64,000 bases of DNA from Jatrophihabitans sp. (lineage in GTDB: Bacteria > Actinomycetota > Actinomycetes > Mycobacteriales > Jatrophihabitantaceae): NCBI GenBank assembly GCA_036261575.1, contig DATAKO010000049.1, positions 40 through 64,039 on the forward strand, given 5' to 3'. The notes beneath the pieces are model-generated. The model was not told where the DNA came from and searched no databases. It saw only the letters and a list, made by a program, of their open reading frames with translations. Within the stretch, counting starts at the first letter, position 1, and every line of letters starts with the position of its first letter. The translations under genes were made by a program, and so were the position numbers. Shown here in pieces: positions 5,248 to 22,403 of this stretch.

Positions 5248-6254
5248 AGACGACGCTGGCGCTGCGGGCGATCGGGCTGGGCGACTTCCTGACCGGCCTG
5301 CCGGCACTGCAGGCGTTGCGCTGGGCGCGCCCGGACGACCGGCTGGTGCTGGCCGCGCCGGCCCATTTCCAGCCGCTGTTGCCGCTCGGCGTGCCGGTGG
5401 ACGAGCTGTGCCCGACCGACGAGCTTTCACCCATCCCGTGGCAGGGGCCGGTCGAGCTGGCAGTCGATCTGCACGGCAACGGACCGGCCAGCCGGCGGCT
5501 GCTGGACCGGCTGCGGCCCGGTCGGGTGCTCGGCTTCGGCTATCCGGGGCGCCCGGGACCGCGGTGGCTGCCGGACGAGCCGGAGGTGCATCGCTGGCTA
5601 CGGCTGATCCAGGAGGGACTGCCGGCCGGCAACCCGCGACGGTGCAACCAGCCGGCGGCATGCCACCCGGCTGCCACGGACTCTCCTGCTGCCCGACCGG
5701 CAGTCCGGTTGTCCGTGCCGCAGGTGCCGGCTCCGGAGGGGGCGATCGTGCTCCATCCGGGCGCGGCGGCACCGGCACGGCGCTGGCCGGTCGAGCGCTT
5801 CGCCGCGCTGGCCCGGCTGCTGCACGAGGCCGGTCAGCGCGTGGTGGTGACCGGATCGGCCGGCGAGCACGCACTCGTCGAGCGGGTGTGCCGGGATGGC
5901 GCGGCGACCGGCTGGGTCGGCCCGACCCTGCAGGAGCTGTTCGCGCTGGTGGCCCGGGCGCGGCTGGTGATCTGCGGCGACACCGGTGTCGCGCATGTCG
6001 CCAGCAGCTACCGCACGCCCAGCGTGCTGCTGTTCGGTCCGGTGTCGCCGGCCAGGTGGGGACCGCCGGCCAGTGGCCCACACCGGGTGCTGTGGCACGG
6101 TGACGGCACCGGCGATCCGCACGGCGCGGTGCTCGATCCGGCGCTGGCGCGGATCGGGGTCGACGAGGTGCTGCAGGCGGCGTTCGCCATGCTGCACCGA
6201 GCTGGACACCCCCGCAGCCACATTGCACCCCTGACCGAGAAGGAGCTGGCGTGA
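5244..6254 (+). CDS. Glycosyltransferase family 9
   Basis: LRAIGLGDFLT, LHPGA, CGDTGVAHVA motifs; GTGA overlap. Confidence 0.88.
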   Translation: MKTTLALRAIGLGDFLTGLPALQALRWARPDDRLVLAAPAHFQPLLPLGVPVDELCPTDELSPIPWQGPVELAVDLHGNGPASRRLLDRLRPGRVLGFGYPGRPGPRWLPDEPEVHRWLRLIQEGLPAGNPRRCNQPAACHPAATDSPAARPAVRLSVPQVPAPEGAIVLHPGAAAPARRWPVERFAALARLLHEAGQRVVVTGSAGEHALVERVCRDGAATGWVGPTLQELFALVARARLVICGDTGVAHVASSYRTPSVLLFGPVSPARWGPPASGPHRVLWHGDGTGDPHGAVLDPALARIGVDEVLQAAFAMLHRAGHPRSHIAPLTEKELA

Positions 6255-7219
6255 GCGAGAATGCCGCCGAACCCACCGACCTCAGCCGCACCTCATGGCG
6301 GGGCGTGCTGCGCCGGTCGGTCCGCGAGTTCAGAGATGACAACCTGTCCGACTGGGCGGCGGCGCTGACCTATCGCAGCGTGCTGACCCTGGCTCCGGCC
6401 AGCCTGCTGCTGGTGTCGGTGGTCGGCCTGCTCGGCCGCGACGCGGTGAACCGGCTGCGCAGCAACATAGATGCACTCACGCCGGGCGGGATCCACTCGA
6501 CTTTGCAGCAGATTCTCGACAGCGTGCAGAACCGCTCCGGAGCGGGCCTGGCCGCCGTGGTCGGCATCCTGGCCGCGTGGTGGTCGGCGTCGAGCTACGT
6601 GGCCGCCTTCATGCGCGCCTCGAACGCCATCTACGAGGTAGGCGAGGGCCGGCCGATGTGGAAGACGATCCCGCTGCGACTGTTGATCACGCTGGCCATG
6701 CTGGTGCTGGGGGTGCTCGCCGCCGCCATCGTCATCTTCAGCGGCCCGCTCGCCGACCGGGTGGGACAGGCGGTCGGCCTGAGCAGCACCGCGGTACTCG
6801 TGTTCAACATCGTCAAGTGGCCGGTGCTGCTGGTGATAGTCAGCTTGATGCTGGCGATCCTCTACTACGCCGCGCCGAACGCGCGGCAGCCCGGCTTCGC
6901 CTGGATCAGCCCCGGCGGGGTGCTGGCGGTGCTGCTCTGGCTGGCCGTGTCCGGCCTGTTCGCGGTCTACGTCGCCAACTTCGCCTCCTACAACAAGACG
7001 TACGGCACGCTGGCCGGGGTGATCGTCTTCCTGGTCTGGATGTGGCTGACGAACATGGCGATCCTGCTGGGTGCGGAATTCAACGCCGAACTGCAGCATG
7101 CCCGCGCCATCCAGGACGGGCTTGCGGATCCGGACTCGCCGGACTTCGCGCTACCGCGGGACACCCGCACCCTGTCCGGGGACGCGCAGCGGCGCGCGCA
7201 GGCGCTGCGGCGCGAGTGA
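6251..7219 (+). CDS. YihY/BrkB family membrane protein
   Basis: DNLSDWAAALTY, RASNAIYEV, PGGVLA, YNKTYGTLAGVIVFLVWMWL, GAEFNAE; multiple TM helices. Confidence 0.9.
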   Translation: MSENAAEPTDLSRTSWRGVLRRSVREFRDDNLSDWAAALTYRSVLTLAPASLLLVSVVGLLGRDAVNRLRSNIDALTPGGIHSTLQQILDSVQNRSGAGLAAVVGILAAWWSASSYVAAFMRASNAIYEVGEGRPMWKTIPLRLLITLAMLVLGVLAAAIVIFSGPLADRVGQAVGLSSTAVLVFNIVKWPVLLVIVSLMLAILYYAAPNARQPGFAWISPGGVLAVLLWLAVSGLFAVYVANFASYNKTYGTLAGVIVFLVWMWLTNMAILLGAEFNAELQHARAIQDGLADPDSPDFALPRDTRTLSGDAQRRAQALRRE

Positions 7220-7241: not shown

Positions 7242-8114
7242 TCAGGGCCGGTGCGCCTGCTCGCCGGTGTGCCGCGACTCCGGCCAGCTGGGCGCGGCCC
7301 CGGTCAGCACCACTTCCTCGGCGACGTCGGCAAGCTTGACGTGGTTGCGTTGCGAGGCCGTGCGCAGCAGCTCGAAGGCCTGCTCCTCGGTGACCTTGTA
7401 GATGGCCACCAGCACGCCGATGGCCACGCCGATCCGGCGGTTGCTCTCCAGCGCCTTGCTGAGGTTGTCGGCCTGATCGCTGCGGCTGGCGTCGTGCAGG
7501 GCTACCGCGGCGTGCACGGCGTACACCGATCCGAGCGCCAGCCGCTGCATCGTCAGGGCGTACGGCCGGTCCGCGTACAGCACCAGCACGCCGACCGGAT
7601 CACCTTGCGTGCCAAGGCAGAACGCCGCCGCCGAACGCACCGGCGTGCGGTCCATCATGTGCCGGGAGTAGCCGGGCCAGCGGGTCTCGGCGGCGAAGTC
7701 GTCCACCACCAGGTTGCCGCCGGTCCGCAGGCATTCCTCGGCGAGTATTGCCTGGCTGGCGGCAATCTCGGCCAGGCCCTCGCCCAGCCCCGCGTCGCTG
7801 CACGCGTCCAGCCGCAGGTGCGTCGCCCGTTCGGGCAGGTGCCACAGGGAGGCACAGTGGCAGCCGAGCTTGGCCACCGCCAGCTGGACGATCTGCTGGC
7901 GGGTGCTCGCCAGGTCGGGCGCCTCCGCGATGCACATCGCGACGTCGGCGAATTCCATCGCCAGGTTCAGTTCCGCACCGCTGGCAGCGGCGGCACCGGC
8001 ATCCGCCGGCAGTGAACCTGCCTCCTGCCGAGCAGCATCGTTGGGCGCCACATCGGGAGCGGCACTGTCGGTCACGGTTGTGCGGGACAGGGTTGTGGAG
8101 GACGGGGAAGTCAT
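7242..8114 (-). CDS. GAF and ANTAR domain protein
   Basis: GAF region then ALESNRRIGVAIGVLV...AFELLRTASQRNHVKLADVA (ANTAR); AAGG RBS before ATG. Confidence 0.9.
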   Translation of the reverse strand: MTSPSSTTLSRTTVTDSAAPDVAPNDAARQEAGSLPADAGAAAASGAELNLAMEFADVAMCIAEAPDLASTRQQIVQLAVAKLGCHCASLWHLPERATHLRLDACSDAGLGEGLAEIAASQAILAEECLRTGGNLVVDDFAAETRWPGYSRHMMDRTPVRSAAAFCLGTQGDPVGVLVLYADRPYALTMQRLALGSVYAVHAAVALHDASRSDQADNLSKALESNRRIGVAIGVLVAIYKVTEEQAFELLRTASQRNHVKLADVAEEVVLTGAAPSWPESRHTGEQAHRP

Positions 8115-8524: not shown

Positions 8525-9034
8525 ATGGCTGTCCCTCACCGCCCGCTGCTGCCGTTGTTCAGCTGGGCCGCGCTGTGTTGGCTGGCGCTGACCTGGAGCC
8601 TGCAGCCCGAACAGCTCGTGGCCGGAGCCGTGATCAGTGCGGCCGTCTCGTTCGGCCTGGCCGGGCTGATGGACGGGGTCGCGCGGCCGTGGGCAGTGCT
8701 GCGTCCACGGCGCGCGCTGGCGTTGTGCAGGCTGCTTGGCCGCACCGCCGGCCACGTGGTGCTGGCCAACCTGCGATTGACCCGGCGGATCTGGAGCCCG
8801 GTGCGGCCACTGCGCTCCGGGATGCTGGTGGTGCGCACCTCGATGCGCGGCGATGGCGAGCTGGCGACGGTGGGCCTGCTCAGCTCACTCATCGTCGACA
8901 ACCAGCTGGTCGATCTCGACCGGGCCACGCATCAGCTTCAATACCACGCGATGGCGGTGTCCCCGCCCGGCCCGCACCGAAGCAGCCAGGTGACCGGCGA
9001 CATCGAGCCGCTGATCCGGGACATGCTGCAATGA
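8525..9034 (+). CDS. mrpE: Na+/H+ antiporter subunit E
   Basis: GGAGG RBS then ATG 8525; WLALT, VVLANL, PLRSGMLVV; N-terminal TM helices. Confidence 0.8.
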   Translation: MAVPHRPLLPLFSWAALCWLALTWSLQPEQLVAGAVISAAVSFGLAGLMDGVARPWAVLRPRRALALCRLLGRTAGHVVLANLRLTRRIWSPVRPLRSGMLVVRTSMRGDGELATVGLLSSLIVDNQLVDLDRATHQLQYHAMAVSPPGPHRSSQVTGDIEPLIRDMLQ

Positions 9035-9291
9035 CCAGGGTGTACGAAGCGGTGTGCGTGCTGGAGCTGCTGCTCATGATCGCGCTGCTGGTGCGGCTCG
9101 CGCGCGGCCCGTCGGTCACCGACCGCATCCTCGCCCTGAACACCATCTCCAGCCAGGCCGCCGTGGCCGTGCTGTGCTACGCCGCGGCGGCCGGCCGGTC
9201 CAGCTATGCCGATGTGGCACTGTGGCTCGCCTCGTTCAGCTACCTGGCAGCCTTCATCTGGGCTCGCTACCTGGAGCGGGGCTTGCTGTGA
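9031..9291 (+). CDS. mrpF: Na+/H+ antiporter subunit F
   Basis: RLARGPSVTDRILALN motif, three TM helices, ATGA overlap. Confidence 0.88.
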   Translation: MTRVYEAVCVLELLLMIALLVRLARGPSVTDRILALNTISSQAAVAVLCYAAAAGRSSYADVALWLASFSYLAAFIWARYLERGLL

Positions 9292-9632
9292 GAGACGTCG
9301 TGGTCATCGTGCTCGCAGCGGTGGGGATGTTCGTCTCGCTGACCGCCACCGTGGGCATCCTGCGGATGCCCGACCTCTACACCCGGGTGCAGTGCTCGTC
9401 CAAGGCGGTGACGGTAGGCACGCTGCCGGTGCTGGCGGCGGTCGTGGTCGGGCAGGGCCCGCTGACCGCCTATGGTGGCCGGGCGCTGCTGGTCGGGCTG
9501 CTGATCCTGCTGCTCGGCTCGGCCACCGCGCACGCGCTCACCCGGGCTGCCTACAAGGCGGGCGTGCCCATGTGGCCCGGGGCGGTGGTGGACGAACCGC
9601 ACGAGCAGGGCGCGGATGGAGCGCCGGGATGA
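9288..9632 (+). CDS. mrpG: Na+/H+ antiporter subunit G
   Basis: VGILRMPDLYTRVQCSSKAVTVG motif; GTGA overlap. Confidence 0.88.
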   Translation: MRDVVVIVLAAVGMFVSLTATVGILRMPDLYTRVQCSSKAVTVGTLPVLAAVVVGQGPLTAYGGRALLVGLLILLLGSATAHALTRAAYKAGVPMWPGAVVDEPHEQGADGAPG

Positions 9633-9925
9633 CCGGGTTCTGGACCATCGACCTGCTGTGCCTGCTGATGATCCTGCTGTCGGCGGTGCTGGTACTGACC
9701 CTGCGCAACCGGGTCGCCTCGGTGCTGGCGCTGTCCGGGCTCGGCACCGGGCTGGGGCTGCTGTTCGTGGTGCTGGCCGCCCCGGATGTCGCGCACGCCG
9801 AGATCATCGTCGGCACCATCGCCACCCCGACGCTGTACCTGATCGCGATCAGCAAGCTGCGGGCCGATGTGCCGGAGTCGGGCGAGCTCGGTGAACCGGC
9901 GGCGACCGACGAGCCGGCGTCATGA
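9629..9925 (+). CDS. DUF4040 / MbhD-like small membrane subunit
   Basis: LAAPDVAHAE motif (APDVA-x-E), three TM helices; ATGA overlap. Confidence 0.82.
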   Translation: MTGFWTIDLLCLLMILLSAVLVLTLRNRVASVLALSGLGTGLGLLFVVLAAPDVAHAEIIVGTIATPTLYLIAISKLRADVPESGELGEPAATDEPAS

Positions 9926-10869
9926 CCGGCAGCGAGGTACCGCACCGGGCACACCGGCCGGTGCTGGCGGCGCTGCTCGCCGTTGCTCTGCTGGTGCTGC
10001 TCTCGCTGGGCGTCGGTAGCCTGCCCGGGGAAGCGGCCGCGCTACCGGCGATCGCCCGGCACGCCATGCAGATCGCGCTTCCGCGCTGGGGACAGGCCGA
10101 GGTGGTCAGCGAGATCGTCTATGGCAGCAGGGGATTCGACACGTTCGGAGAGACGTTCCTGCTGCTGGCCGCAGTGCTGTCGGTGACGGTGCTTGCCCGC
10201 TCCAAGGAGCCGCGCGCCGAGTACGTCGGGGAGTCGACGGCAGGCCGTCGCGAGCAGCGGGAGATCGACCCGGAGCAGGCCCCGGACCGACGCGAGGCGC
10301 AGGCGCAGTCGGCCGAGCGCGATGAGGATGACGAGGAGGCCGCCCCGGCTGCGCCGCCGCCGGATGCGGATCGGATGCGGCTGGCGGCGCGCGCGCCGGA
10401 GCCGGCTGAGGCGATGACCGTGGTCCTGCGGGTCACCGCCCGGATCGCTGCGGTTTTCCTGGCGGTCGCGGCGATCTACCTGGCGGCCTGGGGTTACAGT
10501 CCCGGCGGCGGCTTCCCTGCCGGGGCGGGCCTCGCCGGTGTGGTCATCCTGCTCTACGCCGCGCTCGGCCACCGACGGCTCAGCGGGCTGGTTCGGCCGA
10601 GCGTGCTCGAACCGGTCGAGCTGGGCGGGGCAGTGCTGATCGTCGGCGTCGGTCTCGGCGGCCTGATCGCGCACGGCTCGCTCTTCGCCAATTTCCTGCC
10701 GCTGGCCGCGCCGCAGACCATCCTGGCCGGTGGCGATGAGCAGCTGTACTCCGGAGCCGAGCTGGTCGAGGTCGGCACCGGGCTGGTGATAGCGGTGTTC
10801 AGCCTGCTGGGCCTCGGCCACGACTGGGTGCCGGACGACGACAGCGACCGTGGAGCGCAGGACCAGTGA
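9922..10869 (+). CDS. mrpB: MrpB/MnhB-domain subunit (MbhE+MbhF-like fusion)
   Basis: EIVYGSRGFDTFGE and GYSPGGGFPAG motifs separated by a long hydrophilic linker. Confidence 0.82.
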   Translation: MTGSEVPHRAHRPVLAALLAVALLVLLSLGVGSLPGEAAALPAIARHAMQIALPRWGQAEVVSEIVYGSRGFDTFGETFLLLAAVLSVTVLARSKEPRAEYVGESTAGRREQREIDPEQAPDRREAQAQSAERDEDDEEAAPAAPPPDADRMRLAARAPEPAEAMTVVLRVTARIAAVFLAVAAIYLAAWGYSPGGGFPAGAGLAGVVILLYAALGHRRLSGLVRPSVLEPVELGGAVLIVGVGLGGLIAHGSLFANFLPLAAPQTILAGGDEQLYSGAELVEVGTGLVIAVFSLLGLGHDWVPDDDSDRGAQDQ

Positions 10870-11234
10870 TCATCTGCAATTACCTCGCTGCGGCAACGCT
10901 GTTCTGCCTCGGCCTGCTGGCGATCATGCTGCACCGGGACCTGGTGAAGATCGTGCTCGGGCTGTCGCTGATGGAGGGGGCCGGCTACCTGTTGCTGGTG
11001 TCTATGGCCTACCGGCGCGACGCAACCGCGCCGGTGCTGTCCTCCCCGCCGCCTGGCACCAGCGCCGCCGAGTTGGTGCGCGGCCGGGTCAGCGATCCGG
11101 TGCTGCAGAACTTCTGCTTGACCGCCATCGTCATCGGTGTCGCGGTCACCGCGGTCTTTCTGACCGTCGCGGTGCGGGCCGGCCAGCATTACCGCACCCT
11201 GGACGCCGACAAACTGACCGAGCTGCAGGGCTGA
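10866..11234 (+). CDS. mrpC: Na+/H+ antiporter subunit C
   Basis: RDLVKIVLGL, DPVLQNFCLTAIVIGVAVT, final ELQG. Confidence 0.9.
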   Translation: MIICNYLAAATLFCLGLLAIMLHRDLVKIVLGLSLMEGAGYLLLVSMAYRRDATAPVLSSPPPGTSAAELVRGRVSDPVLQNFCLTAIVIGVAVTAVFLTVAVRAGQHYRTLDADKLTELQG

Positions 11235-11236
11235 GC

Positions 11237-12979
11237 TTGACTGCCGCCGGGCTGCTGCCGCTGGCCGTGCTGGCCCCGCTCGTCGGCGGTGCGATCAGCC
11301 CGCTGCTGGCCCGCTGGCATCGCCGGCTGCCGCTGCTGGCTGGGCTGGTGGCGGTGACCGGCGCGCTGGCGCTGCTGCTGGTGCTGGCCGTCCGGGTCTA
11401 TCGGCACGGGCCGCTCACGCACTTCTTCTCCGGTGAACGTCCGGTGGCCGGCCAGGCACTGGGCATCGCCTTCACCGCAGATCCGTTCGGCATGGTGGTG
11501 GCCATCACCTCCGCTTTCATCGGGCTGATCCTGCTGGTGTCGCTGCTGTCGGAATTCGGCGAGGTCGGCCGGCGGGAGGTGGGTGGCCTGGCCGGACTGG
11601 TGCAACTGCTGCTCGCGGCGCTGATCGCCGCGGCGCTCACCGCCGACCTGATCAATCTGTTCGTCTGGTTCGAGGTGGCGGCGCTGGCCAGTTACGGGCT
11701 GACCGGCTTCCTGCTCGAGCGGCCGATCGCCCTGGAAGCCGCCTTCAAGCTGCTGGTGCTGACCTCCACCGGTGGCTTTGCCGTGTTCATCGGTGCGGCC
11801 ATGCTCTACGACAGCTACGGCGCGCTCAACCTCGGCCAGCTGCACATTGCACTGGGAGCGGGGGTGAACCGGTCGGGCCTGGTTGCCGGTGCGCTGCTGG
11901 TGGGCGGCTTTGCGGTGAAGGCCGGCCTGGTTCCCTTCCACGCCTGGCTGCCCGATGCGCACACCCCCGTGCCCGGTGCCATTTCCGCCCTCTTCTCCGG
12001 GCTGATGGTCAATCTAGGCGCGGTCGGCCTGGTCAGGCTCGCGGTGCTGGTGTACCCGCTTCGCCCCGGCCACCACCTGCTCGGGCTGCTCATGGGGTTC
12101 GGCCTTGCCTCGGCGCTGCTCGGTGCACTACTGGCGCTGGTGCAGGACGATCTGAAGCGGCTGCTGGCCTGGGACACCGTGTCCCAGATCGGCTTGCTGC
12201 TGCTGGGCTTTGCCAGCCACACGCAGGATGGCATGGCCGGAGCCACCTTTCACCTGATCAATCACGCGCTGTTCAAGACGTTGCTCTTTCTGTGTGCGGG
12301 AGCCGTGGTGCACGCCACCGGCGCGACCTCGCTGTCGCAGATGGGTGGCCTGCTGCAGCGGCGGCCGCTGCTTGCCTGCTCCTTCGTGCTGGCGGTGCTG
12401 GCCATCTCCGGGGTTCCCGGCTTCAACGGCTACGTCTCGCTCGACCTCATTCACCGCGGACTGCAGTCGACACCGGTGCTGGAATGGTTCGCCCGGCTGG
12501 CACAGGTGATCACCGTCGCCGCGCTGAGCCGGGGCGCCTACCTCGGCTTCCTCCGCCGCCGCCCGGACGAGTACGACCGGCTGGATACACCGCGGCTGGG
12601 CATGCGGATCAGCTTGCTCAGCCTGGCCACCATCTGCCTGGGGTTCGGCGTATTCGGCCGGCTGCTGGTGACCCGGGTGGCCGCACCGGCCGCCGCGGTG
12701 CTCGGCCGGCCGGATTACTACGCTCGAGCAGCGCTGGGGCTGCCGACCGGGCCGCTGCCCGGCAGTCCCGTCGAGTTCCACTACTTCGCGCCGGGCACGC
12801 TGCTGCCGGCGCTGGTCGAGATCGCGCTCGGGTTGCTGCTGGCCGCCGTCGCCGTCCGCTGGGCCGCCCCGATCCGGCCGATCGGCTGGCTGCAGCGGCT
12901 GCACACCGGCTCGGTGAACGACTATGCCATGTGCGTGACGGCCGGATTTCTGATCACCGGCTGTGTGCTTCTGCTGTAG
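11237..12979 (+). CDS. mrpD: Na+/H+ antiporter subunit D (complex I NuoL/M/N-like)
   Basis: DLINLFVWFEV, KAGLVPFHAWLPDAH, DDLKRLLA, HLINHALFK, SQMGGL, GVPGFNG; TTG start inferred 2 nt after mrpC stop. Confidence 0.9.
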   Translation: MTAAGLLPLAVLAPLVGGAISPLLARWHRRLPLLAGLVAVTGALALLLVLAVRVYRHGPLTHFFSGERPVAGQALGIAFTADPFGMVVAITSAFIGLILLVSLLSEFGEVGRREVGGLAGLVQLLLAALIAAALTADLINLFVWFEVAALASYGLTGFLLERPIALEAAFKLLVLTSTGGFAVFIGAAMLYDSYGALNLGQLHIALGAGVNRSGLVAGALLVGGFAVKAGLVPFHAWLPDAHTPVPGAISALFSGLMVNLGAVGLVRLAVLVYPLRPGHHLLGLLMGFGLASALLGALLALVQDDLKRLLAWDTVSQIGLLLLGFASHTQDGMAGATFHLINHALFKTLLFLCAGAVVHATGATSLSQMGGLLQRRPLLACSFVLAVLAISGVPGFNGYVSLDLIHRGLQSTPVLEWFARLAQVITVAALSRGAYLGFLRRRPDEYDRLDTPRLGMRISLLSLATICLGFGVFGRLLVTRVAAPAAAVLGRPDYYARAALGLPTGPLPGSPVEFHYFAPGTLLPALVEIALGLLLAAVAVRWAAPIRPIGWLQRLHTGSVNDYAMCVTAGFLITGCVLLL

Positions 12980-13052
12980 CCGACCGGGCACGGTGCGCCC
13001 AGCCCGCGCATGCGTCGGGTATCCCGGCGCGCCGAGTGCCCATTCCTGCTCG

Positions 13053-13066: not shown

Positions 13067-13840
13067 GTGATGTCGAACGATGGCGTCGCCGACCGCGCTG
13101 CGAAATCCGATCCGCCGCCCACCCTCGAAGCTGCACGTGCAGTTGACCCCGGCACCCCGGAACCATCGGTCGCGCGGGTGCTCAGCCGGCTGGCCCGGCG
13201 GCTGCAGGGCGAGCAGGATCAGGATGCGTTGCTGGGCGCCATCGCCGACGCTGCCGTGTTCAACGTCAGCGGCGCCGAGTGGGCCGGCATCAGCGTGCGA
13301 TCCGACCGGGCCGGCTTGATCACCCGGGCTGCCACCGACCCGGTGGTGCCGGCAATCGATGAGGCACAGCTGACGCTGGGCGAGGGGCCCGGGCTCGACG
13401 CGGCTCGCCGGCGACACACCATCCGCAGCGCCGACCTGGTTGCTGAGCGCCGCTGGCCCCGCTTCGCCCCGCAGGCGCTCGGGCTCGGCGTGCGCTCGCT
13501 GCTGTCGCTGGAGTTGTTCGGCGCGCGCCGCCGCTTCGGCGCGCTGAACGTCTACAGCGGGCAGCCGAACGCCTTCGACGAGCCGGCGGAAGCGGCGGCA
13601 TTGCTGCTGGCAGCGCATGCTGCGCTGGCCATCGGCGCCCAGCAGACCCGCTCGACGCTCAGCCACGCCCTGGATATCCGCGACGTCGTCGGGCAGGCCA
13701 AAGGCATCCTGATGGAGCGCTACCGGATCGGCAACCAGGAGGCCTTCGAGCTGCTGTCGACCTCGTCGCAGAACACCAACCGCCGGCTGGTCGAGGTGGC
13801 CGACGAGCTGATCCGTACCGGGCAACTGCCGCTGCCCTGA
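13067..13840 (+). CDS. GAF and ANTAR domain protein
   Basis: GEGPGLDAA GAF motif, ALDIRDVVGQAKGILMERY...AFELLSTSSQNTNRRLVEVA ANTAR. Confidence 0.92.
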   Translation: MMSNDGVADRAAKSDPPPTLEAARAVDPGTPEPSVARVLSRLARRLQGEQDQDALLGAIADAAVFNVSGAEWAGISVRSDRAGLITRAATDPVVPAIDEAQLTLGEGPGLDAARRRHTIRSADLVAERRWPRFAPQALGLGVRSLLSLELFGARRRFGALNVYSGQPNAFDEPAEAAALLLAAHAALAIGAQQTRSTLSHALDIRDVVGQAKGILMERYRIGNQEAFELLSTSSQNTNRRLVEVADELIRTGQLPLP

Positions 13841-13976
13841 GTCGACCACCTGCCGTGGCCGAGGGGTGCCGGGGAAGGCCGGCGTGGAGGGTGGCCGGTG
13901 GCGCGTCGAACCGGGGCGGTAATTTACCTGCACCGGTCGGATGACAGCGCCCGATCGACGACGTCAAGGAAACAGG

Positions 13977-14294
13977 ATGGAACTTCTCGTTGAGGTCGAC
14001 GACTCCTCGGCCGACGAATCCGTGATCACGCTGACCGGCTCGCTGGACCTGGCCAGTCGTGGACAGCTGATCGAGGCGGCCGGTGCCGCCATCGATGCCG
14101 GCCGCGGCCTGGTGCTGGATCTGGCCGAGCTGACCTTTCTCGACTCCACCGGCATCGGCGCGCTGGTCGAGGCGGCCGGCATGGCAGCCGATGCCGAGCA
14201 GCGATTCCGGCTACGCAACCCGTCAGCCCGGGTCGCGCGGGTGCTGGAGCTGACCGGCATGTCAGAGCAGTGGCAGATCGAAACCACCGGCTGA
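13977..14294 (+). CDS. STAS domain anti-sigma factor antagonist
   Basis: GSLDL, LVLDLAELTFLDSTGI (phospho-Ser motif), RVLELTG. Confidence 0.9.
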   Translation: MELLVEVDDSSADESVITLTGSLDLASRGQLIEAAGAAIDAGRGLVLDLAELTFLDSTGIGALVEAAGMAADAEQRFRLRNPSARVARVLELTGMSEQWQIETTG

Positions 14295-14327
14295 ATCGCG
14301 CGCGAACCGCAGGAAAGGACGCCGGCT

Positions 14328-14714
14328 GTGTCGGACTTCATCACCATCGAGCTGCCCCCGGAACCGTCGGCGGTGATCCTGGCCAGGCAGTTCGTGGCCG
14401 AGCACGCCGGGGACCTGCCGGAGGACCGCAAGTTCGACGCCGAGTTGCTGGTGTCGGAACTGGTCGCGAACGCGGTCCAGCACGGCCAGCCCGACATCCG
14501 GCTGTCGGTCAGCCCGGACCCGCCCGGCATCTGGGTGCAGGTCAGCGATGAGGGCGACTACCTGCCCCAGCTGCCCGACCGGGCACCGGATTCGCGCCAG
14601 CCCAACGGCCGCGGGCTGCGGCTGGTGGATGCGATCGCGGACTCCTGGGGGGTCAAGCCCGCCGACTCGCCACCCGGCAAGACGGTCTGGTTCGAGATCC
14701 GCATCAGCAGCTGA
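14328..14714 (+). CDS. Anti-sigma factor / serine kinase (RsbW-like HATPase)
   Basis: ELLVSELVANAVQHG N-box, VSDEG, GRGLRLVDA, GKTVWFE; GAAAGGA RBS. Confidence 0.9.
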   Translation: MSDFITIELPPEPSAVILARQFVAEHAGDLPEDRKFDAELLVSELVANAVQHGQPDIRLSVSPDPPGIWVQVSDEGDYLPQLPDRAPDSRQPNGRGLRLVDAIADSWGVKPADSPPGKTVWFEIRISS

Positions 14715-14748
14715 CCGGTCCCGACGCGTGGGTAGCGATCGGGCGGGG

Positions 14749-15147
14749 CTAGTTGCCGGCGGTGCAGTCGGCGTCGGCCGGTTCCAGGCAGGGCAGCAAC
14801 GAGCTCAGCCCGGTCAGCTCGAGCAGTGAACGCAGCCGGGGCGAGGCGCCGTCCAGGTAGACCCGCACGCCGCGGGATTCGGCGTAGTTGCTGACCTGAA
14901 CCAGTCCGCCCAGGCCGGAGGAGTCGACGAAACCGACCCTGGTGACGTCGAGGACCAGGCTATCCACCGCGCCGGCCGCCGCCGAGTCGATGCTGGACTC
15001 CGCGGCGCCCCCGGCTGCCACCGGAGCGGCTGTGTCGCTGGCCGTGCCGCGCAGCGCCAGGTGCGCGATCTCTACGGCAACCCGGGCCGAGGTCATGTCC
15101 AGGTTGCCGGACAGCTCAGCACGAACCGTCCGTCCCAAATCCGTCAC
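14749..15147 (-). CDS. STAS domain anti-sigma factor antagonist
   Basis: LSGNLDM, LVLDVTRVGFVDSSGLG, LLELTGL; GTG start after GAAAGGG RBS. Confidence 0.85.
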   Translation of the reverse strand: MTDLGRTVRAELSGNLDMTSARVAVEIAHLALRGTASDTAAPVAAGGAAESSIDSAAAGAVDSLVLDVTRVGFVDSSGLGGLVQVSNYAESRGVRVYLDGASPRLRSLLELTGLSSLLPCLEPADADCTAGN

Positions 15148-15272
15148 GTGGGCAGCCCTTTCCGGCAAGAATCAGCACGGCGTGCTGACGGCGGGCCCTG
15201 CTCTGTTTGCCCGCTGCTGGCCGTGGCGTCGTGGATGCGCCACCGGCTTCCGGGATAGGCCGCCCCTCACCA

Positions 15273-15280
15273 TATGCTCT
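15273..15280 (+). promoter_or_regulatory. TATGCT(CT) -10 element, probable leaderless promoter
   Basis: TAnnnT hexamer 6 nt before ATG 15285; same TATGCTCT at the same spacing upstream of paralog at 20634. Confidence 0.55.
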
Positions 15281-15284
15281 GGTG

Positions 15285-17159
15285 ATGACGTCGATTGACC
15301 CGGTCCGGCTTCCGGCCACCCCAGGCACCGCCGCCAGGCTCGGGATCGACGACCCGGCGCGGCTGCTGGCCGTGCGCGACACGGGCCTGCTCGACACCGA
15401 TCCGGAGCAGATCTTCGACGGCTTGACCGAGCTCGCCGCCTCCGTGTTGAACGCCCCGTACGCACTCGTCACGCTGGTCGACGACCGGCGCTCGTTCTGG
15501 AAGAGCCGGTCCGGCGTCGCCGACCCCGAGCTGATGCAGAGCGCGATCGAGGATTCGTTCTGCCAGTACGTCGTGTCCAGCGGGCAGCCGCTGATCGTCG
15601 GCGATGCCGCCACCGATCCGCTGACCGCCGGCAATCCCGCCATCTCCCAGCTCGGCGTGGCGGCCTGGGCCGGCTTCCCGCTGCGCTCGGCCCAGGGTCA
15701 CACGCTGGGCACCTTCTGCGTGGTGGACACCCGGGTGCGCGAGTGGACCGGCCGCGAGGTGGAGATCCTGCGGGTGCTGGCCGATGCGGCCAACCGGGAG
15801 ATCTCCCTGCGGCAGTCGATGGCCGATGCGGAGCTGGCCAACGCCAAGCTCAGCCTGCTGGTGGAAGCCGGCCAGCTGCTGGCCGAGACCACCGACCTGC
15901 CGGTATCGCTGGAGCGGCTCACCCATCTCGTCGTGCCGCTGCTCGGCGACTGGTGCGTCATCTCGGTCGTGGATGAGGACGGCCATCTTGCCGACCGGGG
16001 CTGGTGGCATCACGACGAGGCCAGCCGCGAGCTGGTGAGCCGATTCGTGGGCAACCGGCTGGTCGGGCTGAACGAGGACGGCGCCACCAACCGGGCGCGG
16101 CTCAGCAAGCGTCCGGTCATCGTCGAATCGGGTGCGCTGGAGGCAGGTCTGGCGGTGCTGCGCTCGCCGGAGGCGCGCGCCGCCTACCAGCAGCTGGCGC
16201 CGGTGTCCTACGCCGTTTTCCCCATGACCGCAGGCAATCGGGTGAACGGCGTGCTGGCCATCCTGCGCGACGGCTCCCGGCCGCCGATGACCCCGGTTGC
16301 CATCGAGGTGGCCAGCGGCGTTGCCCAGCGCGCCGGACTGGCGCTGGAGAACGCCCGGCTGTTCGAGGCGCAGCGGGTCGCCGTCGAACACCTGGCGATG
16401 GCCAACGCGCGCATCGTGGCGACCGCCAAGCATGACCGGATCGTCGCCCGCGCGCTGCAGGACGCCTTGCTGCCCAACCTGATCGACTCCGATGAGCTGG
16501 AGCTCAGCGCGCGCTACCTGACCGCGGACGGCGCGGATCAGGTCGGCGGCGACTTCTACGACGTGATCGTCACCGACGGCGGGGCCACCAGCCTGGTGAT
16601 CGGCGACGTCAGCGGCCACGACATCGGCGCCGCGGCGGAGATGGGCCGGATCACCAACATGCTGCGGGCGATGCTGTGGCAGCAGCCGGAAGGATCGCCG
16701 GCAGAGGTGCTGGCCCAGCTCGACCGGGCGATGCGCGATTTCGACGTGCGCACCATGAGCACCGCCGCACTGGTACACATCGAAGGGCCGAACGGCACCG
16801 GGCACCGGGCCGTCCGCTGGTCGAACGCCGGCCACCTGCCACCGATGCTGGTGCAGTCAGACGGCACGGTGCGGGCGTTGACCGGCCGGCCGGACCGGCC
16901 GCTTGCGGTGGATCCGCGCGGCGCCCGGCACGATCACCAGGACGTCATGCCGGTGGATGCGACCCTGCTGGTCTACACCGATGGCCTGGTCGAGACTCCC
17001 CAGCGGGACGTCGATACCGGGTTGGAGCAGCTTCGCCAGTACCTGCAAGCACATTGCGGGGACCCGTTGGAATCGCTGGTGGACGGCGTGCTGAGCGAGT
17101 TGATCGCTGATCAGCCGACCGACGACGTCGCCGTGGTGGCGCTGCGGCTGCGGCAGTAG
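15285..17159 (+). CDS. GAF-GAF-SpoIIE (PP2C) phosphatase, RsbU/RsbP-like
   Basis: LLDTDPEQIFD...SFCQYVV GAF; VGGDFYD, IGDVSGHD, NAGHLPP, YTDGLVE, DDVAVV PP2C motifs. Confidence 0.92.
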   Translation: MTSIDPVRLPATPGTAARLGIDDPARLLAVRDTGLLDTDPEQIFDGLTELAASVLNAPYALVTLVDDRRSFWKSRSGVADPELMQSAIEDSFCQYVVSSGQPLIVGDAATDPLTAGNPAISQLGVAAWAGFPLRSAQGHTLGTFCVVDTRVREWTGREVEILRVLADAANREISLRQSMADAELANAKLSLLVEAGQLLAETTDLPVSLERLTHLVVPLLGDWCVISVVDEDGHLADRGWWHHDEASRELVSRFVGNRLVGLNEDGATNRARLSKRPVIVESGALEAGLAVLRSPEARAAYQQLAPVSYAVFPMTAGNRVNGVLAILRDGSRPPMTPVAIEVASGVAQRAGLALENARLFEAQRVAVEHLAMANARIVATAKHDRIVARALQDALLPNLIDSDELELSARYLTADGADQVGGDFYDVIVTDGGATSLVIGDVSGHDIGAAAEMGRITNMLRAMLWQQPEGSPAEVLAQLDRAMRDFDVRTMSTAALVHIEGPNGTGHRAVRWSNAGHLPPMLVQSDGTVRALTGRPDRPLAVDPRGARHDHQDVMPVDATLLVYTDGLVETPQRDVDTGLEQLRQYLQAHCGDPLESLVDGVLSELIADQPTDDVAVVALRLRQ

Positions 17160-18983: not shown

Positions 18984-20591
18984 GTGTCGTCTGCGCTGCA
19001 AGGCCGGCTGTCACCGCACGAGGTGCCGGTGGCCGGCTCGGCGACCCGGCCAGCAGCAGCGGACCTTCGCGCGAACGAGCTGCTGATCGCTCGCCAGCTG
19101 CGCCGTGCGCTGCGTGCCGGTGCCATCGCGGTGCATTACCAGCCCGTCGTCGAACTGCCGTCCGGTCGGATCGTCGGCGCCGAAGCGCTGGCTCGCTGGA
19201 ACGATGAGCTGCTCGGCACGGTGACCCCGGACGTGTTCATCGGTGTGGCCGAGCGCGCCGGCCTGATCGAGGAACTCGGCGCGCATGTGCTGCGCACCGC
19301 GTGCGCCGAGGCCGCCACCTGGACGCCGGCCGCGCCGGACGTGACCGGCCCGTCGGTGTCGGTGAACGTCTCGGCGCTGCAGCTGCGCACAGACGACATC
19401 GTTTCGACGGTGCAGCACGCGCTGGCCGCGGCCGGGCTGGCCGCGACCCGGCTCTGCCTGGAGATCACCGAGACCGCCGCGGTGCAGGACCTGCCCGGCT
19501 GCACGGAGCGGTTGACCGCGCTGCGGGCGCTCGGTGTCCGGATCGCGCTCGACGACTTCGGCACCGGTCACTCCTCGCTGACCTTGCTGCGCCGGCTGCC
19601 GGTCGACATCGTCAAGATCGATCGCTCGTTCGTCGAGCAGGTCACCGCCGACGCCCGCGACGCGGTGCTGGTGCGGCTGCTCATCGACGCGGCGCACAGT
19701 TTCGGCCTGCGGATCTGTGCCGAGGGTGTGGAGACCCGCGAGCAGGCGCGCCAGCTGGTCGCGATGGGTGCCGACCGCGCGCAGGGGTGGCTGTTCGGCA
19801 GGCCGGAGGCCGGCTCGCCGGCGCTCACAGCCCGGCTGACCGGTCCGGCGCGAGAAGGTGTGGACGACACCGCGGCGCCGAAACTGCTGCTCGGCGGCAA
19901 CGAGGAGCTGGTGGTGGTGACCGGGCCGGACTACCGGATCCGCTACATCTCCGCGGCGCTGCACGCGATGCTCGGCTACCTGCCGAACCAGGCTGTGGGC
20001 GCCTCGGTACTGACCTTCCTGGAGAGCGACTCGCTGGTCGGACCGCACCGACCGGAGCCGGGTGTGCTGGTCGGCAACGGCCGCTACCAGGTCCGTCACC
20101 GCGACGGCAGCCTGCGCTGGTTGCACTCGCGCGGCCAGCAGCTGGCCGACATCGGTGGCCGCGGCGCGGAATTCCTGTTCGTGGTCCGCGACGTGACTGA
20201 CGCGGTACGCGCCGAGCGGGCGCTGGCCGAGAGCGAGGCCAAGTTCCGTGAGGCGTTCGACGGGGCGCCGATCGGCATGGCGATCAACCGGCTGGACGGC
20301 AGCTTCCTGGACGTGAACCAGGCGCTGGCCGAGCTGCTCGGCTACACCACCGAGCAGATGCTGGCGATGACGGTGGCCGACATCACCTGCCCGGAGGATC
20401 AGGCCGGCGATGTCGCGAACACCGAAGCGTTGCTGGCCGGCACGGTCCGGCACGTCTCGGTGGACAAGCGCTATCTCGACGTGCACGGCCGGCAGCTGGC
20501 CGTGCGGGTGCGGGCCTCGATCGTGACCGACGACGGCACCGGCCAGGCCTACATCGTGGCCCACGTGCTGCCCCGCGGCTCCGCGTCCTGA
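18984..20591 (+). CDS. EAL phosphodiesterase domain followed by two PAS/PAC domains
   Basis: YQPVV, AEALARW, EITE, DDFGTGHSS, KIDRSF, AEGVE, QGW, then two PAS repeats; no GGDEF. Confidence 0.85.
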   Translation: MSSALQGRLSPHEVPVAGSATRPAAADLRANELLIARQLRRALRAGAIAVHYQPVVELPSGRIVGAEALARWNDELLGTVTPDVFIGVAERAGLIEELGAHVLRTACAEAATWTPAAPDVTGPSVSVNVSALQLRTDDIVSTVQHALAAAGLAATRLCLEITETAAVQDLPGCTERLTALRALGVRIALDDFGTGHSSLTLLRRLPVDIVKIDRSFVEQVTADARDAVLVRLLIDAAHSFGLRICAEGVETREQARQLVAMGADRAQGWLFGRPEAGSPALTARLTGPAREGVDDTAAPKLLLGGNEELVVVTGPDYRIRYISAALHAMLGYLPNQAVGASVLTFLESDSLVGPHRPEPGVLVGNGRYQVRHRDGSLRWLHSRGQQLADIGGRGAEFLFVVRDVTDAVRAERALAESEAKFREAFDGAPIGMAINRLDGSFLDVNQALAELLGYTTEQMLAMTVADITCPEDQAGDVANTEALLAGTVRHVSVDKRYLDVHGRQLAVRVRASIVTDDGTGQAYIVAHVLPRGSAS

Positions 20592-20621
20592 GCGGCGCCT
20601 GATGGCCGGGCCGGCCATGTC

Positions 20622-20629
20622 TATGCTCT
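20622..20629 (+). promoter_or_regulatory. TATGCT(CT) -10 element, probable leaderless promoter
   Basis: 6 nt before ATG 20634; identical to the element at 15273. Confidence 0.55.
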
Positions 20630-20633
20630 CGCC

Positions 20634-22403
20634 ATGACAGCCCTCGAGCCCGGCGGCGCCGACCCGTCCCGCCGCGCAGTGTTCGAAGGGCTGGCAGCGC
20701 TCACCCGCAGCCGGCTCGCGACGAGCCACGCGGTGATCAGCTCCGATGCGCTGGAGCGGCCGTGCTGGGGCGGCGCCGATGATCGCGCGGTACCGGCCGA
20801 GCTGACGGCCGCGCTGGCCGAGCTGGTGACCGGGCCGGTCGCCCGAACCGGCCGGCCGGTCCAGCTGGCCGGACCGGCGAACGCGGCCCCCTTCGCCGCA
20901 GCGGCAGCCGAGCCGGTCTTCGACGCAGACGGCCAGCTGGTCGGCATTCTGAGCGTGCTCGATCAGCAGCCGCGGAACTGGACGCCGGGCGAGCTGGCAA
21001 CGCTGCGTGGCCTGGCCGACCAGGTGGGCGCCGAACTGGGGCTGGACCAGACGCTGTCCCAGCTGCGGCTGGCGACCGCGAAGCTCGGCTTGCTGGCCGA
21101 GGCCAACCACCGGCTTGCCGACACCCTCAATGTCGAGAAGACCGTTGGCGAGCTGGCCCGGCTGGTGGTGCCGGTGCTGGGCGATTGGTGCATGGTGTCC
21201 GCGGTCGACGACGACGGCCGGCTGCAGGACCTGGGCTGGTGGCACGGCACCGAGGACGGCCGGAGCCTGGTGCACGAGTTCATCTCCGATCGGCTCGCCG
21301 TGCTCTCCCAGGACAGCCCGACCTACCGGGTGTTTCGCGAGGGCAAGCCGTTCGTGCTGCCCGCGGGCGCCCTGGCGGCCGGACTGCGGACGCTGTCCAC
21401 CCCACGCTCGCAGGCTGTCTGGCAGCGCTTGGCGCCGGAGTCCTACGCAGTGTTCCCGATGGTGGCCGGTCCCAGGATCAACGGTGTGCTGTGCATCGTG
21501 CGTGGCTCCGACCGGCCGCCGATGTCCGACTTCGCCCTCGAGGTGGCCGAGGGGATCGCCAGCCGCGCCGGCCTGGCGCTGGAGAACGCGCGGCTGTTCC
21601 AGTCCCAGCGGCTGCTCAATGACAAGCTGTCCCAGGCCAATTCTCGGCTGCTGGCCAGCTCCCGGCACGACCGGGTCGTGTCGCGAGCGCTGCAGGATGC
21701 GATGCTGCCCAGCGTGTCGGCAGGCACCGGTGACCTGCAGGTGTGCGCCAGGTACCGCACCGCGGACGGCGAGGACCAGGTCGGCGGCGACTTCTACGAT
21801 GCGATCAACGCCCGCAGCGGCGGCACCACCGTGGTGATCGGTGACGTCAGCGGGCACGACATCGCTGCCGCCGCGGTGATGGGCCGGATCACCCCCGTGC
21901 TGCGCTCCTTTGTGTGGGACCGGCCGGACGAAAGCCCGGCGGAGCTGCTGGAACGGCTGGACCGGGCGATGACCGCGCTGGACGTGGCCAAGCTGACCAC
22001 CACCGCGCTGTTCCATCTGGACCAGCCGGTCGGCGGTGACTACCTGGCCGGCCGGCGCAGCGAGTGGTCGAACGCGGGGCACCTGCCGCCGCTGCTGATC
22101 ACCGCTGACGGCGCCAGCTTCCTCGGCCAGCAACCCGATCCGCCGCTGGGCATCACTGCGCGCGCCGCGCGACGCGACTTCCAGCTGCTGCTGCCGGCGG
22201 GCTCGACGCTGCTGCTCTACACCGACGGGCTGGTGGAGAGCCGGCAGCGCGACCTGGACGCGGGCCTGCAGCAGCTGCGCGCGTTCGTCAGCGAACAGGC
22301 CGCCCTGCCGCTGGCCGAGCTGCTGGATGCGACGCTGCAGGAGATGGTGCCCGGCGAGTTCGGCGACGATGTCGCGTTGGTGGGGGTCCGGCTGCGCGGC
22401 TGA
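20634..22403 (+). CDS. GAF-SpoIIE (PP2C) phosphatase, paralog of 15285..17159
   Basis: VGGDFYD, IGDVSGHD, NAGHLPP, YTDGLVE, DDVALV; shortened N-terminal GAF. Confidence 0.92.
   Translation: MTALEPGGADPSRRAVFEGLAALTRSRLATSHAVISSDALERPCWGGADDRAVPAELTAALAELVTGPVARTGRPVQLAGPANAAPFAAAAAEPVFDADGQLVGILSVLDQQPRNWTPGELATLRGLADQVGAELGLDQTLSQLRLATAKLGLLAEANHRLADTLNVEKTVGELARLVVPVLGDWCMVSAVDDDGRLQDLGWWHGTEDGRSLVHEFISDRLAVLSQDSPTYRVFREGKPFVLPAGALAAGLRTLSTPRSQAVWQRLAPESYAVFPMVAGPRINGVLCIVRGSDRPPMSDFALEVAEGIASRAGLALENARLFQSQRLLNDKLSQANSRLLASSRHDRVVSRALQDAMLPSVSAGTGDLQVCARYRTADGEDQVGGDFYDAINARSGGTTVVIGDVSGHDIAAAAVMGRITPVLRSFVWDRPDESPAELLERLDRAMTALDVAKLTTTALFHLDQPVGGDYLAGRRSEWSNAGHLPPLLITADGASFLGQQPDPPLGITARAARRDFQLLLPAGSTLLLYTDGLVESRQRDLDAGLQQLRAFVSEQAALPLAELLDATLQEMVPGEFGDDVALVGVRLRG

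Follow-up and report, generated by a model that had tools for sequence, protein, structure and literature searches.

A putative MrpA-less, single-pump Mrp operon in a Jatrophihabitans genome and its actinobacterial relatives

Current models of Mrp systems assign a driving role to the MrpA subunit, exerted through a histidine (His) switch (PMC9568556). Some Mrp gene clusters have an irregular gene order or are devoid of mrpA, and these are placed in group 3 (PMC5703873, PMC8415708). The closest described example for the present work is the stand-alone mrpEFGBB'CD cluster of Pyrococcus furiosus (PF1147-1153), which has a single D subunit and no energy-input module (PMC8415708, Haja & Adams 2021). 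Deletion of this cluster made growth more acid-sensitive and lessened the Na+ stimulation of H2 production, and the authors proposed that the complex exchanges Na+ in for H+ out (PMC8415708). Here, we describe a related operon in a 64,000-nucleotide stretch of DNA from Jatrophihabitans sp. (contig DATAKO010000049.1; hereafter, the window). A first-pass annotation of this DNA had started from the premise that Mrp antiporters need MrpA, which is true only for groups 1 and 2, as the MrpA-less group 3 class had already been named (PMC8415708).

The operon probably encodes a stand-alone group 3 (MrpA-less, Mbh/Mbs-type) Mrp, i.e., a secondary monovalent-cation/proton exchanger with a single antiporter-like subunit. 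The MrpA-less class and a one-pump archaeal example are already known, and the actinobacterial one-pump family to which the operon belongs is a new bacterial member. We found no paper on this family, and the bacterial group 3 clusters that we found in the literature have two or more D-type subunits each. Single-pump MrpA-less complexes offer the simplest test of models that place the driving step in MrpA. The only minimal one-pump complex studied so far is that of a hyperthermophilic archaeon, and the actinobacterial family represents a large, conserved bacterial version.

Gene content, distribution and host genome

The window has a G+C content of ~71%, and its raw list of open reading frames is crowded with spurious frames. 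Gene calls for the operon were taken as frames with a third-position G+C fraction of 0.8-0.9, which results in a single string of genes on the + strand. The operon (8525-12979) consists of seven translationally coupled genes, all with intact frames (lengths are in amino acids, aa):

8525..9034, + strand: mrpE-like gene (MbhA/MbsA equivalent), 169 aa; PF01899 MNHE, E 9e-21
9031..9291, + strand: mrpF-like gene (MbhB equivalent), 86 aa; PF04066 MrpF_PhaF, E 2e-12
9288..9632, + strand: mrpG-like gene (MbsC/MbhC equivalent), 114 aa; PF03334 PhaG_MnhG, E 1e-16; TIGR01300 above cut-off
9629..9925, + strand: gene for an MbhD/MbsD-like DUF4040 protein, 98 aa; PF13244, E 6.5e-16
9922..10869, + strand: gene for a B-type fusion (MbhE-like plus MnhB/MbhF-like), 315 aa; PF20501 and PF04039
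10866..11234, + strand: mrpC-like gene (MbsG/MbhG, NuoK-like), 122 aa; PF00420 Oxidored_q2, E 9e-23
11237..12979, + strand: gene for an mrpD/MbhH-type antiporter-like subunit, 580 aa; PF00361 Proton_antipo_M, E 4e-60

The mrpE-like gene has GGAGG upstream of its ATG, and its stop codon overlaps the start of the mrpF-like gene as ATGA. Five of the junctions are such 4-base start/stop overlaps (ATGA or GTGA), and C is separated from D by a 2-base gap. The TTG start of the D subunit matches the N-termini of its relatives.

Matches over the cut-offs to PF01899, PF04066, PF03334, PF04039, PF00420 and PF00361 all lie within this one cluster, which has only one PF00361 gene and no mrpA. MrpA's C-terminal domain (transmembrane helices (TM) 17-21) is supplied by separate small proteins. 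The MbhD-like protein corresponds to TM17-19 of this domain (NuoJ-like), whereas the B-type fusion combines an MbhE-like part (TM20-21 of MrpA; a weak match to PF20501 MbhE at aa 42-104) with an MnhB/MbhF-like part (MrpB; PF04039 MnhB at aa 168-292). The two halves of the fusion are joined by an acid-rich linker of ~65 residues (10205-10410, aa 95-160), which is probably disordered and in which the stretches EpR, GE..Ag..Eq, AR.AE and paPE are kept family-wide. The best NCBIfam models for C, D and the B fusion belong to the PRK083xx series and not to the Bacillus-type or actinobacterial-type Mrp equivalogs. Pfam and frame analysis thus agree with the first-pass annotation in finding an MrpA-less seven-gene operon in Mbh/Mbx order with one NuoL/M/N-like subunit. 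The gene that it had called B does contain MnhB and is refined here to an MbhE-MnhB/MbhF fusion.

Relatives of the D subunit number in the thousands. The best 120 all have a length of ~580 aa and an identity to it of 56-69%, and those that carry names are annotated as "multicomponent Na+:H+ antiporter subunit D". When one genome per species was scanned with a sequence pattern, at least 147 encoding loci were obtained, of which 80 were kept. All but one of these (79/80) belong to Actinomycetota, the exception being a Candidatus Xenobia metagenome-assembled genome (MAG). Carriers include Jatrophihabitans, Mycobacterium alsense, M. colombiense, Kribbella, Pseudonocardia, Actinopolymorpha, Actinospica, Segeticoccus, Solirubrobacterales, Acidimicrobiales and Gaiellaceae.

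Gene order was counted in 71 related loci in which both operon ends could be assigned. The same seven genes occur in the order E-F-G-MbhD-B-C-D in ~70 of these, and the arrangement is therefore far beyond chance. Order and length are kept across classes at 50-69% identity in ~70 loci, with Mycobacteriales, Jatrophihabitantales, Solirubrobacterales, Acidimicrobiales, Streptosporangiales and Propionibacteriales among the orders represented. The MrpE-like protein is present in 69 related loci.

The host genome is a soil-metagenome MAG of 3.5 Mb in 185 contigs, rated 100% complete. It has five PF00361 genes, which encode NuoL (split across the ends of contigs C23 and C63), NuoM, NuoN, the D subunit of the operon and a DabB-like protein. 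DUF4040 (PF13244) is carried by every MrpA, and its single match in the genome is the 98-aa protein of the operon. PF01058 (NuoB), PF00346 (NuoD) and PF00146 (NuoH) are represented by single genes that belong to the nuo operon (contig C23), and PF00420 by two, NuoK and the MrpC of the operon. The first-pass annotation had proposed a genome search for mrpA and group 4 hydrogenase genes, and neither was found. The PF00361 and PF13244 profiles revealed no unlinked mrpA that could complete a standard complex and no second Mrp, and the searches for NuoB, NuoD and NuoH (NuoI was not searched separately) revealed no group 4 hydrogenase, Mbx or Hyc module. Since genes can be missing from a MAG, two other carriers were checked, the isolate Mycobacterium sp. 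1164966.3 and a genome of Solirubrobacterales that includes a contig of 3.5 Mb. As PF00361 genes, both have only NuoL/M/N and an operon-type D, together with a single NuoD.

Several related genes were seen during these searches. After the gene for the DabB-like protein (531 aa; C32:6465-8060), a DabA/DUF2309-like gene begins and runs off the contig, and the two are a probable DAB CO2-uptake pair. Among other Actinomycetota, canonical group 2 Mrp is common and stands beside the one-pump operon in some genomes (Actinospica, L124). The DUF4040 domain was detected in 196 of 401 sampled genomes of the phylum, either within an MrpA of 750-1150 aa or as a stand-alone protein of ~80-260 aa, so that free-standing MbhD-type genes are common in some actinobacterial families. 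At L119 (M. alsense), L120 (M. colombiense) and L121-L123, two PF00361 genes enclose or adjoin a NuoD-like gene. These are Hyc/group 4 [NiFe]-hydrogenase-like clusters, unlinked to the one-pump operon of the same genomes. Those of M. alsense and M. colombiense, for which an identity as canonical Mrp was rejected, have their own antiporter-like subunits.

Subunit affinities, the D-subunit tail and functional residues

Six of the subunits (F, G, MbhD, the B fusion, C and D) were compared with all solved structures in the PDB, and the best match was always a chain of P. furiosus MBH or MBS. The D subunit scored 193 bits with MbhH, 165 with MrpD of B. pseudofirmus, 149 with MbsH, 121 with MrpA and 113 with Dietzia MrpD. 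The C subunit matched MbsG (69 bits) and MbhG (64) ahead of MrpC (33-37; B. pseudofirmus MrpC 37). For G, MbsC (6u8y_C) gave 76 bits, MrpG 53-57 (A. flavithermus 57) and Dietzia MrpG 17, and for F, MbhB (6cfw_B) was best at 44 bits (E 2.9e-10), with A. flavithermus MrpF at 36. The MbhD-like protein scored 33 bits with MbsD, 32 with MbhD and 19-20 with the MrpA C-terminal domain; together with the MbhE-like part, it aligns to MrpA ~636-697 and to MbhE/MbsE. The B fusion best matched MbhF and MbsE (the latter over both halves), with MrpB weaker and MbhE also matched. Throughout, the actinobacterial Dietzia Mrp was the weakest or among the weakest matches, and the operon is therefore no derivative of the group 2 Mrp of its own phylum.

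A maximum-likelihood tree was built from 48 sequences (the one-pump family, six actinobacterial MrpA'/MrpD pairs, NuoL/M/N, Hyc-like proteins, DabB and five PDB chains). MrpA, NuoL and DabB split from the rest with a support of 100/99. Canonical MrpD sequences (Bacillus and six actinobacterial proteins) formed a clade (100/99) that excludes the one-pump D family. The latter is a separate clade (100/100) on the MrpD/NuoM/NuoN/MbhH/Hyc side, where the backbone joining it to MbhH+MbsH, canonical MrpD, NuoM, NuoN and the Hyc-like proteins has no resolved order.

Members of the D family are ~90 aa longer than MbhH or Bacillus MrpD. An AlphaFold2 model of the D subunit, built with 50 homologs (predicted local distance difference test (pLDDT) score 90.8, predicted TM-score 0.93), has a 14-TM core followed by TM15 (519-541), an 8-residue helix (547-554) and TM16 (560-579). 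Superposition of the core gave a target-normalised TM-score of 0.94 with MrpD and 0.90 with MbhH, and the longest structural alignments (~600 columns, query TM-score 0.83) are with MrpA and NuoL, both of which have TM15-16. Just before the last helix, the sequence LHTGSVNDY is invariant in the D family. It resembles the QTG(Y/F)xRxY that precedes TM16 of NuoL, including the NuoL of the same genome. This short motif and the modelled topology provide a lead to NuoL; a profile of the C-terminal 125 aa gave only chance matches to PDB sequences (E > 1). PF10125 (NADHdeh_related) was examined as a tail domain and rejected, as its match overlaps the PF00361 core (aa 130-240) and is uninformative on the tail. 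The tail may be a NuoL/MrpA-like C-terminal anchor whose long lateral helix has shrunk to a stub, and a helix reduced in this way would fit a complex without a second pump subunit to span.

Functional residues were counted in family alignments of 69-80 relatives per subunit. In the D subunit, K228, H235, H242, K307 and K347 are present in 80/80 relatives, and E146 and H343 in 77/80. E37 of the C subunit, the acidic residue of TM2 at the position of MbhG Asp37, is likewise present in all 80. The MbhD-like protein has the motif APDVAxxE, whose E58 (67/74) occupies the Mbh/Mbs position; the residue that corresponds to MrpA Glu687 is Gly. In the B fusion, the MbhE part contains RGFDTFGE, in which E77 (74/75) is equivalent to MrpA Glu780, and the MnhB part contains PGGGF, in which F198 (75/75) is equivalent to the MrpB Phe41 gate. 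D31 and D61 of the F subunit are found in 72/72 and 71/72 relatives, respectively. These alignments show an intact buried polar axis across the family.

Proposed function, genomic setting and alternative explanations

The sequence features of group 3 are present in the operon: the small-subunit domains and D in one cluster without mrpA, a Glu/Lys pair, the TM12 Lys and a NuoK-like acidic residue. A 14-TM MrpA N-domain with a lateral helix, as in groups 1 and 2, is absent, and D lies outside the canonical MrpD clade. The arm order A-B-C-D-E(-F)-G-H and the sequence affinity are those of MBH/MBS, but the catalytic and anchor subunits (MbhJ, L, M, N) are missing, as judged from the searches for NuoB-, NuoD- and NuoH-like genes.

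The function of the complex is most likely secondary cation/H+ exchange for pH and cation homeostasis. The mechanism proposed here is modeled on homologous complexes with solved structures (MBH, MBS and Mrp), and assembly, transport activity, direction, stoichiometry and cation identity are likewise predictions, with the cation being especially uncertain because of the substituted MrpF residue described below. Protons would pass through the D subunit by way of the TM5 Glu146/TM7 Lys228 pair, His235, Lys307, His343 and the TM12 Lys347. D would be coupled electrostatically, along the buried polar axis, to C (Glu37) and to the split NuoJ-like pair of MbhD (Glu58) and the MbhE part (Glu77), and the cation path would lie in the distal MbhE-MnhB/F/G/E module, including the PGGGF gate. 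Canonical Mrp has two proton channels and this complex would have one, so that its H+:cation ratio would be lower, which would suit pH and cation homeostasis at neutral to acid soil pH and be less suited to alkaline survival. The direction could be cation in/H+ out, as proposed for the stand-alone Mrp of P. furiosus.

Several observations weigh against this interpretation. First, the carboxylate of the MrpF Asp38 type, the proposed cytoplasmic Na+ "N-site" (PMC8679088, PMC9568556), is absent from the operon, although this residue is part of a mechanistic proposal and not a defining criterion of group 3. The F subunit has Asn37 at the position of MbhB Asp35/MrpF Asp38 in 72/72 relatives. Since canonical actinobacterial MrpF carries Asp at this position, as do MbhB, MbsB and Bacillus MrpF, the Asn is specific to the one-pump clade. 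Second, Y192 of the B fusion (66 Y and 8 F; 74/75), which precedes PGGGF, stands where MrpB (His34), MbhF and MbsE have His. With the N-site Asp replaced by Asn and MrpB His34 by Tyr/Phe, Na+ coupling is not assured. Third, the His-switch element of MrpA is absent from the operon. Fourth, the absence of genes from a MAG in 185 contigs is not absolute, though the two other genomes agree. Fifth, approximately unbiased tests allowed the D family to be united either with MbhH+MbsH (p 0.21) or with canonical MrpD (p 0.35). In the phylogeny that the first-pass annotation had suggested, D thus does not nest within the canonical MrpD clade but may be closer either to MbhH/MbsH or to canonical MrpD. 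Finally, the sequence was found only in soil-metagenome DNA runs and in no RNA run.

The substituted residues bear on an alternative that we regard as unlikely but worth keeping in mind, namely, that the same complex has a changed ion selectivity (K+/H+ or Ca2+/H+), or is a proton-only or regulated leak, and is not a Na+/H+ antiporter. The uniform Asn37 and the near-uniform Tyr/Phe at position 192 are what such a change could look like, in Mrp, Na+ transport is blocked when the homologous site is mutated (PMC8679088), and K+- or Ca2+-specific Mrp systems are known (PMC5703873). However, the other proposed sodium-loading residues (the MbhD Glu, the Glu of the MbhE part, the MrpC Glu, D61 of F and PGGGF) are kept, and Na+ can also be ligated by residues that have no carboxylate, such as Asn, Thr and Gln.

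The surroundings of the operon were examined in the window and in the 71 related loci. No hydrogenase or redox genes flank it in the window, in agreement with the first-pass annotation; the neighbors are a pair of GAF-ANTAR genes and a STAS/RsbW/PP2C set. The GAF-ANTAR genes are treated here as neighbors of the system:

7242..8114, - strand: GAF-ANTAR regulator gene, divergent neighbor; PF03861 and GAF domains
13067..13840, + strand: GAF-ANTAR regulator gene, downstream neighbor; PF03861 and PF13185

The 87 bases between mrpD and the downstream regulator contain a weak terminator-like hairpin (13033-13052), and no other intergenic terminator-like hairpin was found. The operon leader has no Rfam family, no leader RNA motif and no sigma-70-like promoter. 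Further downstream (13941-17159 and 18984-22403) are genes for STAS, an RsbW-like kinase, STAS, GAF-GAF-PP2C, a histidine phosphatase, an NAD(P)HX dehydratase, EAL-PAS and a second GAF-PP2C protein. This is a dense partner-switching/signaling neighborhood, for which the label "signaling/stress island" is fair. The first-pass annotation had likewise placed the operon in a stress island. However, although two GAF-ANTAR genes bracket the operon here, such genes lie within 10 kb of it in only ~15 of the 71 loci. Upstream (6251-7219, + strand), the window has a gene for a BrkB/YihY-family membrane protein, which is also found ~2-3 kb upstream of the operon in four loci of uncultured Actinomycetes (L048, L051, L055, L057).

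No gene is a constant neighbor in the flanks of the 71 loci, where no family exceeds 25-26 occurrences and no NuoB-, NuoD- or NuoH-like gene was found. The most frequent neighbor encodes a PoxB-like pyruvate oxidase/dehydrogenase dependent on thiamine diphosphate, which is located within ~7 kb in ~20-26 of the loci, from seven orders or more. The gene varies in side, strand and distance (e.g., L025, L078, L059, L030, L067, L058, L082, L088), and in the genome of the window it is on another contig (C34:81322-83085). The PoxB-like enzyme was rejected as a conserved partner because it occurs in at most 26/71 loci at variable positions.

These data make it quite improbable that the operon encodes a membrane arm that joins a catalytic partner encoded elsewhere to form a redox-driven or otherwise energised complex, as in MBH, MBS/Mbx and the Mnh modules of T. 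onnurineus. The subunits are indeed closest to the MBH and MBS arms, the side of D that MrpA or MbhM would occupy is exposed, D also has the extra TM15-16 with its NuoL-like end motif, and the PoxB-like protein, a quinone-linked flavoenzyme, is encoded within 7 kb in about a quarter to a third of loci. Against this, the genome has no NuoB/D/H-like gene beyond the nuo operon, the two other carriers have a single NuoD, no gene family constantly adjoins the operon, the PoxB-like gene is inconstant in position, and the group 4-like clusters of M. alsense and M. colombiense are unlinked and have antiporter-like subunits of their own. Of the two possibilities raised in the first-pass annotation, a membrane arm is thus disfavored, and a minimal stand-alone ion-translocating module, with no MrpA or redox partner in the genome, is the better supported.

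A decaying, inactive remnant of a canonical Mrp that lost mrpA, an idea that could draw on group 2 Mrp being common in Actinomycetota yet absent from this genome, is effectively refuted by the seven intact coupled frames, the conservation of order, length and catalytic residues in ~70 loci, the greater similarity of the subunits to archaeal MBH/MBS than to actinobacterial Mrp and the position of D outside the canonical MrpD clade.

We also consider, tentatively and as a rather doubtful possibility, that the actinobacterial one-pump clade differs in mechanism from every Mrp, MBH and MBS module studied. In view of the Asn and Tyr substitutions, it would then use another ion or a carboxylate-free site, and the NuoL-like TM15-16 tail would serve in docking or clamping, either as the complex self-associates or with a non-homologous partner. 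If this were true, one antiporter-like subunit, without the MrpA histidine switch, would suffice for coupled transport. The conserved Asp-to-Asn change at the proposed Na+ site is a ready-made natural experiment, and carriers include culturable Kribbella, Pseudonocardia, Actinopolymorpha, Actinospica and environmental Mycobacterium, which provide material for expression, mutagenesis and cryo-electron microscopy.

Comparison with known Mrp-type complexes

Group 2 Mrp, represented by the complex of Dietzia sp. DQ12-45-1b (7D3U; mrpA'CDEFG), shares with the operon the CPA3 superfamily, the domain set and a fusion of the A C-terminal domain with a B-type domain. It differs in having a 14-TM MrpA N-domain with a long lateral helix, two antiporter-like subunits, the order A'CDEFG and D subunits that fall in a separate clade.

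The MBS/Mbx arm (MbsA-E, G, H; 6U8Y) and the MBH arm (MbhA-H; 6CFW) have the same subunit order as the operon. The best matches of C, G, MbhD and the B fusion are in MBS, and those of F and D are in MBH. MbsE of MBS is the same MbhE+MbhF fusion as the B gene of the window (PMC8415708), and the MbhD Glu is at the Mbh position, as in both complexes, and not at that of MrpA Glu687. Unlike MBH and MBS, the window lacks the MbhJ/K/L/M/N (NuoB/C/D/H/I-like) module, MbhI and MbsH', the predicted complex would not be redox-driven, and its F subunit has Asn at the N-site instead of Asp.

Other MrpA-less systems, or systems with a small "MrpA", include cyanobacterial mrpCD1D2EFGAB and MrpEFGBBCDD of the Solemya velum symbiont. 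In these also, B-type domains reside on small proteins, but such multi-pump group 3 Mrp systems have two or three D-type subunits, in contrast to one in the window.

The stand-alone Mrp of P. furiosus is similar in overall design. It too has seven genes (E-F-G-(B-type)-(B-type)-C-D), one pump, neither MrpA nor a redox module, and an MrpA C-terminal domain made up of small separate proteins. The fusion points differ: P. furiosus fuses MbhD with MbhE and keeps MbhF separate, whereas in the window MbhD is separate and MbhE and MbhF are fused through the acidic linker. According to the published supplement alignment, whose text is damaged by optical character recognition, P. furiosus MrpD has 487 aa and lacks the two-helix LHTGSVNDY tail, and its MrpB lacks the APDVAxxE Glu that is kept in the MbhD of the window. 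The hosts also differ, one being a hyperthermophilic archaeon and the other a mesophilic aerobic soil actinobacterium. The predicted proteins depart from the P. furiosus prototype in four respects: MbhE is fused to MbhF, as in MBS, D has a tail, MbhD keeps its Glu, and Asn occupies the N-site of MrpF throughout the clade. For annotation, the operon is best described as a group 3 (one-pump) Mrp and not as a broken Mrp or a hydrogenase arm.

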